Assembly: GCA_964202895.1 (NCBI GenBank)
Contig: CAXNJM010000001.1
Coordinates: forward strand, 909,675-973,674
Direction of reading: 5' to 3'
Length of the DNA stretch: 64,000 nt
From: Rickettsiales bacterium UBA1997
GTDB taxonomy: Bacteria; Pseudomonadota; Alphaproteobacteria; Rickettsiales; UBA1997
How positions within the stretch are numbered: the stretch's first letter is position 1; every line of letters begins with the position of its first letter. Positions 45,273 through 51,501 of the stretch are shown here, in pieces. A model generated the notes under the pieces. The model did no database searches and was not told the origin of the DNA. It worked only from the letters and a program-made list of their open reading frames with translations. A program made the translations under genes and the position numbers.

Positions 45273-45607
45273 GGCGAACATTTTTAACATTAATTTTTTT
45301 TAAGCAAGATTTTTTTTAACAAATTTTACCAACCCAACGAGTTAAAGGGTTTATAGCTATTAATTTTTAGGTAAAATTCTAGTAAAGTTTAATATTATCA
45401 GTTGTCAAATATTGATAAGAAAGCAATAAATTTTAAGTAAATTTGTTGCTTATTAGAAAGTAATTTATATTTTAAAATTTGATTAAATAATCGATAATCT
45501 AATTTAATTTAATCTTCTTTTTCAAGGTGTTAGTGCTTATCAAGCATTGATAGAAATTGTAAAAAGGCTTAAAATAGCCCTCTTTATTAACTTATTTGCA
45601 TCACAAA

Positions 45608-48226
45608 ATGCTTCAAATTATTGCTAAAAAAATTTTTGGTTCGGTTAACGACAGATCAATAAAAGCTTTACAGCTAGATGTTATTAAAATTAATGAGTTG
45701 GAGTCTTCCATTTCAAAGCTTAGCGATATAGAATTGCAAAACAAAACCAACGAATTTAAGGAGTATCTTAAAAATGGTGGCAAAGTTGACGATTTACTTC
45801 ATCAAGCATTTGCAGTGGTTAGAGAAGCTTCTAAAAGAATATTGCAAATGAGGCATTTTGATGTCCAATTAATAGGCGGTATAGCTCTTCATCAAGGAAA
45901 AATAGCAGAAATGAGAACCGGAGAAGGTAAAACCCTAGCCGCAACCTTGCCGTGTTATTTAAACGGCCTTACAGGCAGAGGAGTTCACCTCGTCACAATA
46001 AACGATTATCTTGCTAAAAGAGATTCCGAATGGATGGGTAGGTTATATCAATTTCTTGGACTTACTGTTGGCTGTATAACTTCTGAAAGCGATGAAGTTG
46101 CTAGAAGAAATGCTTATAATTGCGATATCACCTATGCTACTAATAACGAACTCGGTTTTGATTATCTTAGAGACCAAATAAAATATAGCCTTGAAGATAC
46201 TGTACAAAAGCCAAAATATTATGCTATTGTCGATGAGGTTGATTCCATATTAATTGATGAAGCAAGAACTCCTCTGATAATTTCTGGGCCAACTAACGAT
46301 AATTCAAGGCTTTACCAGCAAATTAATCAATTTATTCCACTACTAAAGAAAGAAGATTATCTTGTTGATGAAAAGGAAAAGGCGGTTTCATTTACCGAGC
46401 AAGGCATTGAAAATGTTGAAACGATGCTAAAAAATAGCGGTGTTATTGAAGTTGATTCTAATATCTATGATGCGATAAATATATTACTAGTTCACCATCT
46501 TAATCAAGCATTAAAAGCACATAAAATTTTTAAAAATGAAATTGACTACATTGTTAAAAATGGCTCAGTAATAATCATTGATGAATTTACTGGTAGAATG
46601 CAAGAAGGCAGAAGATTCTCCGATGGATTGCATCAAGCTCTTGAGGCAAAAGAGGGGATAAAAATTCGCAATGAAAATCAAACTCTCGCCTCAATTACTT
46701 TTCAAAATTATTTTCGTCTTTATGAAAAACTTGCAGGCATGACGGGAACCGCTTCCACCGAAGCATTGGAGTTCGAGGAAATATATAATCTCAAAGTAAT
46801 AGAAATTCCAACCAATCAAGCAATTGCAAGAATTGATGAAGAAGATGAAATTTATAAAACAGAAAAAGCAAAACTAGATGCAGTATTCAAAACCATTAAA
46901 ACTTGCTATGAAAAAGAACAGCCAGTTTTAGTTGGAACAATCAGCATCGAGAAATCTGAGCAAATCTCTAAATTACTCAAAGACAATAAACTGCCTCACA
47001 ATGTTTTGAATGCTAAATATCATCAACAAGAAGCTGAAATTGTTGCGCAAGCAGGTGCTCCAAAAGCAATTACTATTGCTACTAATATGGCAGGAAGGGG
47101 AACCGATATTAAGCTTGGCGGTAATATTGAGAAATTGATAGGAACAGAAACTGACCATGAAAAAATAAAAAATATTGAGGCAGAATTTACAAAAAACAAA
47201 GAAAGGGTTATTAAATCTGGAGGGCTTTATATTATTGGCACAGAAAGACATGAAAGCCGAAGGATAGATAACCAATTAAGAGGTAGATCAGGAAGGCAAG
47301 GAGACCCCGGAAATTCCAAATTCTTTCTTTCGCTTGAAGATGACTTAATGAGAATATTTGGCTCTGAGAAGCTTGGATACATGCTCTCTAAATTGGGCTT
47401 GGAAGATGATGAGGCTATTATTCATCCTTGGATTACTAAAACTCTTGAAAAGGCACAGCAGAAAGTGGAAACAAGAAATTACGAAATTCGTAAAAATCTA
47501 CTGAAATATGACGATGTAATGAATCAGCAAAGAAAAATCATCTTTGCATTAAGGGAAGATATACTCACAGGTGCTCAAATTATTGAAAGAATCAATGAAA
47601 TAAGCAAAGAAATTAACCAGCATGTTGTCAATAGCTATTTAAAAAGCAATATAGAGCACAGCGATTATGCATTAGAAGCAGAAAAGCTAGACAATGAAAT
47701 GATTAGAATTTACGGAATTAAAATCAATTCTTATCAAATTATTGAAGAGCAAAATTTTAATCATAAGGCGGTAGAAGAAGTGATAAATCAACAAACTGCT
47801 AAAATATTCAAAGATAAAGTGGAATTATATGGAGAAAGTTCATTTAAACAAGCGACAACTGAAATTTTTCTCTCCACCCTTGATTTTGAATGGAAGGATC
47901 ACCTTCTCTCTCTCGATAAATTAAGAAATTCTATTAATCTTAGGGCTTATGCACAAAAAGACCCTTTGCTTGAATATAAGAAAGAAGCTTTTGACCTATT
48001 TGAAGAAATGTTGGCAAGAATTGAAGAGCAAACAATTTCTTATTTATCTCATTTAAAAATATCGATGCAGAGCGATAGAAATAACGATTTAGACGACATA
48101 ATCAATAATAATCAAATTGCTAATTATCTTAATTCTGGTGATAAAAAAGAGCAATCAAGAAACGAATCTTGTTCGTGTGGAAGTGGAAAAAAATTCAAAT
48201 ATTGCCACGGCAAAATTGCTAGCTAA
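45608..48226 (+). CDS. secA: Preprotein translocase ATPase
   Basis: EMRTGEGKT, DEVDSILIDEARTPLII, TNMAGRGTDI, RSGRQGDPG, C-terminal CSCGSGKKFKYCH. Confidence 0.98.
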   Translation: MLQIIAKKIFGSVNDRSIKALQLDVIKINELESSISKLSDIELQNKTNEFKEYLKNGGKVDDLLHQAFAVVREASKRILQMRHFDVQLIGGIALHQGKIAEMRTGEGKTLAATLPCYLNGLTGRGVHLVTINDYLAKRDSEWMGRLYQFLGLTVGCITSESDEVARRNAYNCDITYATNNELGFDYLRDQIKYSLEDTVQKPKYYAIVDEVDSILIDEARTPLIISGPTNDNSRLYQQINQFIPLLKKEDYLVDEKEKAVSFTEQGIENVETMLKNSGVIEVDSNIYDAINILLVHHLNQALKAHKIFKNEIDYIVKNGSVIIIDEFTGRMQEGRRFSDGLHQALEAKEGIKIRNENQTLASITFQNYFRLYEKLAGMTGTASTEALEFEEIYNLKVIEIPTNQAIARIDEEDEIYKTEKAKLDAVFKTIKTCYEKEQPVLVGTISIEKSEQISKLLKDNKLPHNVLNAKYHQQEAEIVAQAGAPKAITIATNMAGRGTDIKLGGNIEKLIGTETDHEKIKNIEAEFTKNKERVIKSGGLYIIGTERHESRRIDNQLRGRSGRQGDPGNSKFFLSLEDDLMRIFGSEKLGYMLSKLGLEDDEAIIHPWITKTLEKAQQKVETRNYEIRKNLLKYDDVMNQQRKIIFALREDILTGAQIIERINEISKEINQHVVNSYLKSNIEHSDYALEAEKLDNEMIRIYGIKINSYQIIEEQNFNHKAVEEVINQQTAKIFKDKVELYGESSFKQATTEIFLSTLDFEWKDHLLSLDKLRNSINLRAYAQKDPLLEYKKEAFDLFEEMLARIEEQTISYLSHLKISMQSDRNNDLDDIINNNQIANYLNSGDKKEQSRNESCSCGSGKKFKYCHGKIAS

Positions 48227-48332
48227 ATATTAAATTGAGACATAGGTGATTATATACTTATCTCCCCTAATTTCTCTTGACAAGTTGTTTCGCTCCTTTA
48301 TTATGTAGGCATTAACAACAAAAAGATTTTTT

Positions 48333-49262
48333 ATGAGAAATTTTAAAAACTTAATGGACTTCGCAACTTTCTTCAAAACAGAAGAAAAATGTCATAAGTA
48401 TTTGAAGTCTATTTTGTGGCAAGAAGGCTTATATTTCGCTTTCTGCGGTGCTGACAAAATCCACCAATACGAATCAAACTTTAAGAAAAATCGCTGCTAC
48501 TCCTGCAAACAAGATTTCTCAATCCGTAAGGGAACGATCTTTGATTCTTCTCGACTAAGCCTGCAAAAATGGTTCATGTGCATCTATCTAGTTAATTCAA
48601 ACAAAAAGGGCATCTCAATTTGTCAGTTGGCTAATCAAGTTGGGATTATTCAGAAGTCAGCTTGGTTTGTTTTGCAAAGAATTAGAGAGACTTACCAATC
48701 TAATGATTTCACTAATCCATTTAACGGCATCACAGAAATTGATGAGGCTTACTTGGGAGGCAAAGAAGAAAACAGACATGCAAAAGATAAGAGGCTAACG
48801 GGTAGAAAAGAAAAGGCGGTTATAATTGACTTAGTAAATAGAGATACAAAGCAGGTTAAAGCATTGAAAGTTGTTAGCTCGCAAGCTGAATATCTATTGC
48901 CTAAAATTTACATGAATGTTGCCGACAACTCAACGATCATCACCGACACTTTACAGGCTTATAAACCACTTAAAAAACACTACGATCACAAAACAATTAA
49001 ATACTCCGCTGGTGAATATATTAAGAACAATTCACGAGTAGCTTTCAAGATTCACACCAACACGATTGAGGGATTTTGGGGTGAATTAAAACGAGACATA
49101 AAAGGAATTTATCACTGGGCAAGCCAAAAACATATTCAAAAATATTGCAATGAATTTGCTTATCGTTATAACAATAGAGAAATGAAAAATAACGAAAGAT
49201 TCGTAGATTTTCTTAGTGGTGTGGCAAATACGAAATTAACTTATAAAACTTTAACAGCATAA
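48333..49262 (+). CDS. IS1595-family transposase
   Basis: Zn-ribbon + HTH, EIDEAYLGG, IITD, HTNTIEGFW, YCNEFAYRYN. Confidence 0.92.
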   Translation: MRNFKNLMDFATFFKTEEKCHKYLKSILWQEGLYFAFCGADKIHQYESNFKKNRCYSCKQDFSIRKGTIFDSSRLSLQKWFMCIYLVNSNKKGISICQLANQVGIIQKSAWFVLQRIRETYQSNDFTNPFNGITEIDEAYLGGKEENRHAKDKRLTGRKEKAVIIDLVNRDTKQVKALKVVSSQAEYLLPKIYMNVADNSTIITDTLQAYKPLKKHYDHKTIKYSAGEYIKNNSRVAFKIHTNTIEGFWGELKRDIKGIYHWASQKHIQKYCNEFAYRYNNREMKNNERFVDFLSGVANTKLTYKTLTA

Positions 49263-49265
49263 ACT

Positions 49266-50624
49266 ATGAGACAAAGAGCTATAAGGATTACTGAGCTTCA
49301 GGATAGGCAAATGAATTTTGGTCAAGTTATCAATGTTTTAAATAGTTCAGCAAAACGACCAAAGAAGAAAAACCTAACATTTATTGATCTATTTGCGGGT
49401 TTGGGAGGAATTAGACTTGGCTTTGAAAAGGCATGCGAAGAATTAAACATTAAATCTAAATGTGTATTTTCTAGCGAAATAAAAGAGCATGCTGTTCAGA
49501 CTTATGCCAATAACTTTAAAGACGAAGAAATTCATGGCGACATCACAAAAGTTGATGAAAAGAAAATGCCAGATTTTGATTATTTACTAGCTGGCTTTCC
49601 ATGCCAAGCCTTCAGTAGTGCTGGAAAAAGACAGGGCTTTTCTGATATAAGAGGAACATTGTTTTTTGATATTGTCAGAATTTTAAAAGCAAAAAAACCG
49701 GAAGGTTTTATTTTAGAAAATGTTGAGGGGCTTGTTGTTCATAACAACGGAGACACTTTTCAAACTATTATAAAAGAATTAGATAATTTGAATTATAAAG
49801 TTTCTTGGAGAGTTTTAAACGCTTCAGATTTTGGAATACCGCAAAACAGAAAAAGGGTTTATATTGTTGGGCATTTAAAAAGAAAAATTGACCTAGATAA
49901 TTTTGAGAAAAAGTCCTGCTCATTGAATGATATTATTGATAACAAACATATCGAGAAGCCAAGTAAATTTGTTAATCTTCTGTTAGAGCATTACTCAATC
50001 AAAGAATTAGCTGGCAAATCTATAAAAGATAGAAGGGGTGGGGATAATAATATACACAGCTGGGACATAGACTACAAAGGTAAAATTACGCAAAAACAGA
50101 AGGATTTGATGAATATTCTTCTTAAAAAAAGAAGAATGAAGAAATGGGCTATAGAAAAAGGAATAGAGTGGATGGATGGAATGCCGCTTACTATTGATGA
50201 AATTTCAACTTTTTATGATGATAAAAATCTGAAGCAAATGCTCGAAGACCTAGTGAAAAAGGGTTATTTGAAATTTGAACATCCAAAAAATCTATTTATT
50301 GAGAATGGTTCTAAAATAAGAAAATACGACATAACGAAGTCAAAAGGTTATAATATCGTTGCTGGCAAACTCTCGTTTCCTTTATCTACAATCCTTTCTC
50401 CCTCTGGAATAGCCCCAACTATAGTTGCAACTGAGGCCGGAAAAATCGCAATAGCGACAAAAAAATGTATTAGAAATTTAACGGTCAGAGAAGGACTTAG
50501 ATTATTTGGATATCCAGATAATTACAAAATGGATGATATTGATTATACCAAGGCTTTTGATCTCTTGGGAAACACTGTAATACCTCCAGTTATAGCAGAA
50601 ATAACAAAAAGAATTTTTAAATAA
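49266..50624 (+). CDS. C5-cytosine DNA methyltransferase
   Basis: DLFAGLGG, GFPCQAFS, ENV, PQNRKRVY, GNTV. Confidence 0.97.
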   Translation: MRQRAIRITELQDRQMNFGQVINVLNSSAKRPKKKNLTFIDLFAGLGGIRLGFEKACEELNIKSKCVFSSEIKEHAVQTYANNFKDEEIHGDITKVDEKKMPDFDYLLAGFPCQAFSSAGKRQGFSDIRGTLFFDIVRILKAKKPEGFILENVEGLVVHNNGDTFQTIIKELDNLNYKVSWRVLNASDFGIPQNRKRVYIVGHLKRKIDLDNFEKKSCSLNDIIDNKHIEKPSKFVNLLLEHYSIKELAGKSIKDRRGGDNNIHSWDIDYKGKITQKQKDLMNILLKKRRMKKWAIEKGIEWMDGMPLTIDEISTFYDDKNLKQMLEDLVKKGYLKFEHPKNLFIENGSKIRKYDITKSKGYNIVAGKLSFPLSTILSPSGIAPTIVATEAGKIAIATKKCIRNLTVREGLRLFGYPDNYKMDDIDYTKAFDLLGNTVIPPVIAEITKRIFK

Positions 50625-51289
50625 TGTCAGCTCAATCTCTCTTTAATGCACTGAAAGCAAAAAACATAATTGGATCTCATGGAACGGTTTATTTTGAGAT
50701 GCAGAATTCAAAATGTGTAATTAATGACAGCAGCATTATCGGCAATGTAATACAATCTTGGCTTCAAGATTTTATGAATAAAAACAATATCCAATACCGC
50801 ACAGTTGATAACACGCAGGAATTTCCTGATTTTTATCTCTCTCAAGATAAAAACGATGTAGAATTATTAGAGGTCAAATGTTTTACAAAAAGTGCAAATT
50901 TTGATGTAGCTAACTTCCTGTCCTATTGCCACTCAATACTAGAAAAACCATATAGACTCAATGCTGATTATCTAATTTTTGAGTACAGCACCTCGGAAAA
51001 TGGAATAATAATCAAAAATATTTGGTTAAAAAAGGTTTGGGAAATATGTGGTGGTTCGGACAGGTCGGCTATCAAGATTCAATGGAAAAAGGGTCAAGCC
51101 TACAACATAAGACCGTCAACTTGGTATGGCACTAAAAAGGTAAAATATCCCGCTTTTTCTACCAGATTAGATTTCATAAAAGGGCTGCAAGAAGTCTTAA
51201 ATACTCATTCTTCTGCCGATTCTTTGCGTAAAGATTTCGTTAAAAAAGTTAGTAAGCTTTTTAAAGAACAAACGAGCGAAGATCTATAA
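50624..51289 (+). CDS. Type II restriction endonuclease, NgoBV/NlaIV-like (GGNNCC inferred)
   Basis: IGNVIQSW, TQEFPDFY, LLEVK, FDVANF, DYLIF, WLKKVW, NIRPSTWY match NlaIV-family motifs as I recall them; ATG overlaps the MTase stop. Confidence 0.85.
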   Translation: MSAQSLFNALKAKNIIGSHGTVYFEMQNSKCVINDSSIIGNVIQSWLQDFMNKNNIQYRTVDNTQEFPDFYLSQDKNDVELLEVKCFTKSANFDVANFLSYCHSILEKPYRLNADYLIFEYSTSENGIIIKNIWLKKVWEICGGSDRSAIKIQWKKGQAYNIRPSTWYGTKKVKYPAFSTRLDFIKGLQEVLNTHSSADSLRKDFVKKVSKLFKEQTSEDL

Positions 51290-51367
51290 GGGGAAATAAG
51301 TATATAATCACCGAGACATAAAGAAATATGTTGAATTTTGTTTTTTTTGTTTGAGAATTACAAACTT

Positions 51368-51450
51368 GGTGAGAGTGGGCATTTTTATTTGTAAATCTGG
51401 TCAGATTTGAAAGAAAGCATCCATAGCAAGTTTGATGGGTTACTCTCACC
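51368..51450 (+). ncRNA. ffs: SRP (4.5S) RNA
   Basis: Terminal stem GGTGAGAGT/ACTCTCACC; domain IV TCAGATTTGAAAGAAAGCA vs canonical TCAGGTCCGGAAGGAAGCA; directly upstream of dnaX. Confidence 0.85.
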
Positions 51451-51501
51451 TTTGCCACACTTCAGTAAAAATAAAATTTAACCTCCACCTTATTTTCATT
51501 A

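Follow-up and report, generated by a model that had tools for sequence, protein, structure and literature searches.

An IS1595-family element between secA and ffs of a Rickettsiales bacterium, with a Type II restriction-modification pair as its probable passengers

The segment described here lies between secA and ffs, the gene for the small signal recognition particle (SRP) RNA, in a 64,000-nucleotide stretch of the genome of Rickettsiales bacterium UBA1997 (GenBank assembly GCA_964202895.1, contig CAXNJM010000001.1, positions 909,675 to 973,674 of the forward strand), referred to below as the window. It consists of three genes transcribed in the same direction, tnp for a transposase, M for a cytosine DNA methyltransferase and R for a restriction endonuclease, enclosed by inverted repeats (IRL and IRR) and by two copies of an 8-bp target-site duplication. 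A previous sequence-only reading of the window by a model had taken it for a complete IS1595 transporter element whose cargo is an entire Type II restriction-modification (R-M) system. Positions 48245-51312 are very probably a transporter insertion sequence (tIS) of the IS1595 family, 3,068 bp long, that has the M-R pair as passengers and was inserted as a single unit. This degree of confidence is meant for the whole explanation developed below taken jointly, namely tIS identity, insertion as a unit, expression as an operon, a leader acting as an adaptor, persistence of the cargo and targeting by distance from a promoter.

The repeats and the 8-bp duplication that mark members of the IS1595 family are both present, with 24-bp repeats and with GAGACATA found twice at the element and once in the empty site. 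The reverse complement of IRR is GGTGATTATATACTTATTTCCCCT, which is identical to the 24-bp IRL at 23 of 24 positions, and the two form the longest inverted repeat of the region in an inverted-repeat search. The coordinates given earlier for the repeats and for GAGACATA were all correct, and the proposed insertion site, 10 bp past secA and upstream of ffs, agrees with a secA stop codon at 48224-48226, which is 10 bp from the left duplication, and with ffs at 51365-51456.

The empty site that the sequence-only reading had proposed to look for in relatives was found, exact, in two metagenome contigs (L115 and L116) by a scan with the left flank. The flanks of these contigs are 96% identical to the window, and they read ...ATTAAATTGAGACATAAAGAAATATG... 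with one GAGACATA and run from secA straight into ffs. Alignments to the window end at 48244 and restart at 51313, sharing 8 bp. In a Rickettsiaceae metagenome-assembled genome (MAG; L075), another locus, adjoining tRNA-Pro, holds a full-length tnp-M-R sibling with 83.5% identity over 3,063 bp, which carries counterparts of the 452-aa methylase and the 221-aa endonuclease. The exact empty site and this sibling with the same cargo at another locus show that the unit transposed whole. As passengers of a tIS are expected to, M and R lie between the repeats, here between tnp and IRR, and move along, being part of the 3,068 bp that are absent from the empty site and recurring at the second locus. 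The DDE transposase recognised the 24-bp terminal repeats and placed the 3,068-bp unit by way of an 8-bp staggered cut, with the short secA-ffs spacer as the landing spot.

R-M genes with ISs on either side have been reported (PMC2853133), and for this reason an arrangement was considered in which the R-M genes were resident in the chromosome and an ordinary IS landed beside them, or in which two ISs form a composite, so that the repeats do not bound one mobile unit. This is extremely improbable and was rejected on the strength of the empty-site contigs and L075. All 3,068 bp are missing together from the empty site, the transposase gene and the repeat pair are each single, and the same tnp-M-R unit occurs at another locus; nothing was found in its favour. 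Carriage of these R-M genes here without the repeats, which would have spoken against the earlier reading, is not seen in the sister-species genome G003, which has a different R-M cassette with the same termini at this position. Searches of plasmid and phage collections returned no relative of the whole element, only homologues of the methylase.

Profile matches were obtained for all three products that had been named from the sequence, a transposase, a C5 methyltransferase and an NgoBV/NlaIV-like endonuclease. The transposase matches DDE_Tnp_IS1595 (PF12762; 4.6e-35, 121.3 bits against a cut-off of 27) and NF033547 (2.7e-50, 171.2 bits against a cut-off of 75), and its catalytic residues D137, D205 and E246 align with those of relatives, so that its DDE domain is of the IS1595 type. 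The product of M matches DNA_methylase (PF00145) end to end (4.3e-88) and TIGR00675 (4.7e-106) and retains the FPCQ, ENV and QNRKR motifs. R matches RE_NgoBV (PF09564; 2.5e-50) over residues 2-215 of 221 and has a PD...EVK motif, and the two are thus adjacent methylase and endonuclease genes with intact catalytic motifs, as in Type II R-M systems.

The sequence and its open reading frames (ORFs) bear out the spacing reported before, with a gap of 3 bp between tnp and M, an overlap of 1 bp between M and R, and an endonuclease stop codon that runs into IRR, the innermost base of which (51289) doubles as the last A of that codon. The internal TTGACA-N16-TATTAT noted earlier at 48277-48304 is the top promoter match of the region (11/12) and is kept in the siblings L059, L066 and L067. 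The ORF list includes no controller-type ORF in the element, again as stated before. The three genes would be expressed as one operon from this promoter just inside IRL, and the position of M upstream of R with a 1-bp overlap may provide translational coupling, in which case gene order would substitute for a controller protein.

Table 1. Positions in the window of the element, its genes and its immediate surroundings.
Feature	Position	Strand	Basis or remark
secA	45596..48226	+	876-aa ORF; reads on unbroken into the empty-site contigs; stop codon 48224-48226
Left copy of 8-bp target-site duplication GAGACATA	48237..48244		Sequence; one copy in empty-site contigs L115 and L116
IRL GGTGATTATATACTTATCTCCCCT	48245..48268	+	23/24 complementary to IRR; same terminus in siblings
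Promoter-like site TTGACA-N16-TATTAT	48277..48304	+	11/12 consensus match, just inside IRL
tnp, IS1595-family DDE transposase, 309 aa	48333..49262	+	PF12762, NF033547
M, C5 cytosine DNA methyltransferase, 452 aa	49266..50624	+	PF00145 full model, TIGR00675
N-terminal leader of the methylase (MRQRAIRITELQDRQMNFGQVIN...), assigned to element backbone, not cargo	49266..49355	+	DNA homology to siblings with other cargo
R, NgoBV/NlaIV-family Type II restriction endonuclease, 221 aa	50624..51289	+	PF09564; P68-D69...E83-V84-K85
IRR	51289..51312	-	Sequence and repeat search
Right copy of target-site duplication GAGACATA	51313..51320		Sequence; empty-site alignments overlap by these 8 bp
TTGAAT, ffs promoter -35 hexamer, proposed target determinant	51331..51336	+	Starts exactly 10 nt past the duplication
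ffs (small SRP RNA)	51365..51456	+	RF00169, full model length

The SRP RNA gene was not detected at the Rfam gathering threshold and surfaces only at an E-value threshold, about 2 bits below the cut-off (RF00169 covariance match, 37.8 bits against a gathering score of 40, E 1.2e-6). In a genome this rich in A+T, default annotation would overlook it.

Within the bacterial family, GGTGATTATATACTT is a recurrent terminus, and 46 distinct elements were delimited by a script requiring inverted repeats and an 8-bp duplication. Each is 1.4-4.9 kb long and all therefore exceed the size of a bare IS. Duplications of 8 bp occur in dozens of relatives and are A/T-rich, without a consensus of their own. 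R-M genes are present in at least 11 of the 17 sibling elements with annotated cargo. The combinations include a C5 methylase with a BsaWI-like protein, a C5 methylase with a PDDEXK_5 protein, a D12 methylase with an unknown protein, D12 methylases with PDDEXK_11 nucleases, an EcoRV endonuclease with a D12 methylase, and three Type IIG-like fusions. Cargo beyond R-M comprises Panacea and YafQ toxin-antitoxin genes, RhuM and Bro-N. Elements of the ISNwi1 subgroup of ISfinder have a DDEK motif and ends that follow the pattern 'ggnnatTAT'; the ends of the window element begin GGTGATTAT and appear to fit this pattern, and E246-x6-K253 is present in its transposase.

An IS1595-type transporter IS of 3,611 bp in the window's own genome (C1:579742-583352) has an intact 299-aa transposase, perfect 26-bp repeats (GGTAATTATCCCTTGACAACAAGTAA) and the duplication AAATTTTT, and carries on the opposite strand an 810-aa N6_Mtase and Methylase_S fusion (Type IIG-like). 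A further element of the same genome, C1:1005517-1007645 (L057 1518-3646), shares the 15-bp termini and encodes a Bro-N protein and a transposase truncated to 235 aa. The genes on either side of it are divergent, and each flank has a TTG hexamer at offset 10. In a 3.6-kb element inserted between tRNA-Arg and tRNA-Gln (L084 4512-8104), genes for an EcoRV endonuclease (3.6e-98) and a D12 methylase are accompanied by those for a Panacea-domain antitoxin and a YafQ toxin. Two loaded copies with different 8-bp duplications were found in one Chloroflexota chromosome (L099 and L101), and two more in one Rickettsiales MAG (L076 and L098), the methylase of L098 being frameshifted.

Comparison of siblings with different cargo points to a fixed boundary between backbone and cargo. 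Homology of the window element to L059 (about 90%) and L066 (86%) extends from IRL through tnp to methylase codons 26-30 (query 1105-1119), and past these codons it returns only in the 24-26 bp IRR. The leader of about 26-30 residues at 49266-49355 is also found in L059, L066, L067, L071 and L075 and has the form M(R/K)Q(R)AIRI(T/P)E(L/I)QDR..F, which is found at the head of one D12 methylase and of C5 methylases of three kinds. Differences in the leader between distant copies are mostly synonymous, indicating conservation at the protein level, and it is without a counterpart in the Neisseria homologue, with which the alignment begins at residue 35. As a lone query, the 40-residue leader returned a single protein. 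The last gene of the R-M siblings stops at or within IRR. From these comparisons, the leader is likely to be a translation-start adaptor encoded by the backbone, such that the first 26-30 codons of the methylase would form a fixed expression adaptor onto which sibling elements have fused different methylases. In-frame read-through from tnp into M was also considered, and was dropped as it is true of three siblings and not of L067.

The insertion point of the window element stands in a precise relationship to the ffs promoter, the -35 hexamer of which is listed in Table 1. The -10 element is GAGAAT at 51353-51358, ffs begins at 51365, and both hexamers are also found in the empty site. A hexamer test was applied to the 92 flanks of the 46 elements, counting TTGnnn with at least 4 of 6 matches to TTGACA, reading away from the element. 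Such hexamers occur at offset 10 in 12 of the 92 flanks, whereas the counts at 53 other offsets average 1.34 and never exceed 5 (binomial P 1.1e-8; 6e-7 corrected). There are none at offset 9 and one at offset 11. By this strict test the signal is present in 10 of the 17 elements with a transposase at least 48% identical to that of the window and in none of the 29 that are more distant. Weaker TTGCAT hexamers are located at offset 10 in L073 and L093, and eight further single tips have an offset-10 hexamer. The offset-10 hexamers are 34-46 nt before the 5' ends of ffs or tRNA genes, or 39-110 nt before co-oriented ORFs, distances expected of true promoters, and are found at either end of the element, with own2, L077 and L131 having them on both sides. 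Stable-RNA genes are frequent neighbours, since 7 of the 46 elements are at most 75 bp from a tRNA gene or ffs and several siblings lie 52-64 nt ahead of a tRNA gene. No tRNA gene is near either of the two further IS1595 elements of the window's genome, and proximity to stable-RNA genes would therefore be a consequence of promoter targeting and not the rule itself.

These observations suggest that the insertion point is not random. In this clade, exactly 10 bp would separate the 8-bp target from a downstream -35 hexamer that points outward from the element. Such placement would spare the host promoter and all coding sequence, providing a safe haven, and strong stable-RNA promoters (ffs, tRNA) would become recurrent landing sites. 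We somewhat favour the view that the clade picks targets by reading promoters, with the transpososome recognising the -35 TTGACA directly, or sigma-70 RNA polymerase bound there. Direct readout might use the DNA-binding surface that binds TCTCTTGACA of the element's own promoter.

A promoter-adjacent position could also result from survivorship, if insertions occur anywhere and compact genomes retain none but those that hit the few neutral bases in front of promoters. The genomes concerned are indeed small (about 1.4 Mb) and gene-dense with few neutral sites, the A/T-rich duplications lack their own consensus, and the 29 more distant relatives are without the offset-10 signal. However, precision to a single nucleotide (12 at offset 10, none at 9 and one at 11) is hard for selection to produce, the hexamers are at either end and in own2, L077 and L131 at both, and two independent elements are inserted 1 bp apart in sister species. 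Survivorship is accordingly judged a rather poor prospect as the source of the pattern.

The second of these insertions is in G003, a genome of the same genus with flanks 90% identical to the window, which carries a 3.3-kb insert between secA and ffs (L026 2102-5403; G003:C56). This cassette has the same 15-bp termini as the window element, different subterminal sequence and no transposase gene. It encodes a PabI-family endonuclease (4e-40) together with a 380-aa N6 methylase, and it also contains a RhuM gene that is divided between two overlapping frames. The end of the cassette is 17 nt from the ffs -35 hexamer, compared with 18 nt for the window element, and the cassette is an independent event 1 bp from the window insertion point. 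On the other side, about 26-27 bp of flank have been lost and secA now ends at a stop codon within the repeat; there is no target duplication. Instead of having been mobilised in trans, the cassette may be what is left of a decayed tIS. Its subterminal sequence did not decide the orientation (40/59 versus 36/58 matches).

The description of the window element as complete is somewhat generous, as its transposase has undergone C35F and five more radical changes. Positions that are invariant in seven relatives carry the private changes C35F, P36A, S96I, G166D, H224Y and G255D, and comparably close siblings have 1-2 conservative private changes each. The zinc ribbon CxxC...CxxC retains 3 of its 4 cysteines, the first ligand being Phe (C35F), and scores 24.6 bits with PF12760 against a cut-off of 25.4, compared with 38-44 bits for siblings. 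Relative to its L075 counterpart, the methylase has 87.8% amino acid identity (129 synonymous versus 55 non-synonymous codon differences) and the endonuclease 91.4% (65 versus 19), and the transposases are only 75% identical. In L075 the catalytic glutamate of the transposase is replaced (E246K) and the repeat tips are eroded, with M and R intact. Judged by these codon differences, M and R are under purifying selection between the two copies, and the vehicle may be decaying while its R-M cargo persists. Once established, the pair would guard against foreign DNA and punish its own loss, and purifying selection would therefore last even where the transposase decays.

A stronger version of this holds that the element is now an immobile relic, its transposase dead or dying and the 3-kb unit kept because the R-M pair is useful or addictive. 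The chances of this appear about even, and it is compatible with the history proposed above, differing on present activity only. The six private changes at invariant positions set against 1-2 conservative ones in close siblings, the zinc-ribbon score under the Pfam cut-off, the state of L075 (E246K and eroded tips, yet intact M and R) and the single copy in the genome all favour it. However, the tnp frame is open with D137, D205 and E246 present, the repeats match at 23 of 24 positions, the duplication is perfect, and the insertion is younger than the approximately 4% divergence from the empty-site strains.

A relative of the methylase was also seen in a phage-like context. The Logan contig L117 (1087-2707), which has a Peptidase_M15_3 gene, contains a fragment of this element. 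Of tnp the final 73 nt are left, the methylase is 91% identical, and the endonuclease gene has codons ~20-177 deleted and the remainder fused to a downstream ORF. The methylase in L117 is a captured orphan, possibly serving phage self-protection.

From its sequence, the cargo of the window element is a Type II R-M pair with homology to the NgoBV-type pair of Neisseria. The N. gonorrhoeae genes have the same M-then-R order, and their products are 53% (M) and 36% (R) identical to the window proteins. Specificity for GGNNCC is a prediction from family membership and these identities. The genome shows no shortage of GGNNCC (1,290 sites, with an observed/expected ratio of 1.46); either the system is recent or its specificity differs, and the count says little about the recognition sequence itself. 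It is possible, though in our view unlikely, that the cargo is not a working GGNNCC system at all and has another specificity, or an inactive endonuclease with the methylase as an orphan. In addition to the site count, the modest identity of R to the Neisseria gene fits such an outcome, and L117, in keeping its methylase next to an internally deleted endonuclease gene, demonstrates that such decay to an orphan methylase does take place. Against it, the match of R to PF09564 is near full length, the PD...EVK motif is present, R is under strong purifying selection, and the M-R overlap and order are kept in the L075 sibling and in Neisseria.

In the whole genome G000, a Markov model shows broad avoidance of short palindromes, with ratios of 0.22 for ACGT, 0.28 for GCGC, 0.43 for GGCC and 0.49 for GTAC, which suggests long exposure to 4-bp-cutting restriction systems. 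A connection between GTAC avoidance and the PabI cassette was dropped, as under the Markov model it shrinks to general avoidance of 4-bp palindromes. No PabI homologue was found in the window's genome.

A number of points weigh against the explanation as a whole. The window element is single-copy in its 1.42-Mb genome, its transposase may, from the changes described, already be inactive, and the predicted recognition sequence is not depleted. The 10-bp rule is broken within the clade, where the hexamers of L076, L082 and L083 are at offset 12-13 and a further five members lack one, and more distant elements likewise have hexamers at offset 12-13. The -10 boxes behind the offset-10 hexamers are often weak, and some of the element ends delimited by script may be off by one base.

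The concept of the transporter IS is reportedly due to Siguier, Gagnevin and Chandler (in 2009). Passenger genes in the IS1595 family, which the sequence-only reading had described as known, are indeed on record as tISs of this family. Transporter ISs are said to occur in no families other than IS1595 and IS66 (bioRxiv 10.1101/2021.05.26.445724), and the characterised examples are tISCpe8 and MTnSag1 (PMC5704250). The window element resembles them in having one IS1595-type DDE transposase, terminal repeats of about 25 bp, 8-bp duplications and co-moving passengers (PMC5704250; bioRxiv 10.1101/2021.05.26.445724; PMC3129680), but instead of the published cargos (lincomycin resistance, mobilisation) it has a Type II R-M pair fused to a backbone leader. 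Transposon-like R-M units with imperfect inverted repeats, an 8-bp target duplication and a verified empty site were described by Furuta, Abe and Kobayashi in 2010 (PMC2853133). The window element is like those units in all of these respects, and one of them includes a transposase-like gene; however, their mover was not identified by the authors (PMC2853133), whereas here a transposase family, siblings with swapped cargo and a second insertion have been identified.

The G003 cassette, with family termini, no transposase gene, and PabI-type R-M and RhuM genes as passengers, resembles the mobile insertion cassettes (MICs), of which MIC231 from Bacillus cereus is one (cited in PMC3129680). It differs from these in having no target duplication and in missing about 26-27 bp of flank. 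The cargo of the window element shares with the Neisseria NgoBV/NlaIV-type system (GGNNCC) the M-then-R order, the RE_NgoBV endonuclease and a methylase that is 53% identical, but its methylase has a 34-residue leader, and its endonuclease is only 36% identical, so that the recognition sequence is predicted only.

Safe-haven targeting is known for Tn7 at attTn7, for CRISPR-associated transposons near ffs or tRNA genes, and for Ty3 upstream of Pol III genes. The elements described here are similar to these in maintaining a fixed distance from a conserved landmark, in sparing host genes and in having stable-RNA genes as recurrent neighbours. They differ in that no dedicated target selector or guide RNA is evident, and the landmark seems to be a -35 hexamer or the RNA polymerase bound to it.

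The element thus belongs to a known kind, the transporter IS with R-M cargo, and no description of a promoter-relative target preference of such elements was found in the searchable literature. It provides a well-documented case, with an empty site, a duplication and a second insertion, of an R-M system that travels as the passenger of a one-gene transposon, and it has a modular cargo slot in which a leader likely encoded by the backbone takes in different methylases and a cargo that may outlive its vehicle. The promoter-distance rule, the modular leader and the secA/ffs hot spot are what make it worth following up. If true, aiming at the -35 hexamer would be a simple, protein-only route by which a DDE transposon reaches harmless sites, and would offer a safe landing pad for defence-carrying transposons in gene-dense genomes. 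It would also account for the collection of defence cassettes at loci beside tRNA and SRP-RNA genes, and the strongest promoters (tRNA, ffs) would then be hot spots at which one R-M cassette takes the place of another, the secA/ffs site in two sister species being an instance.

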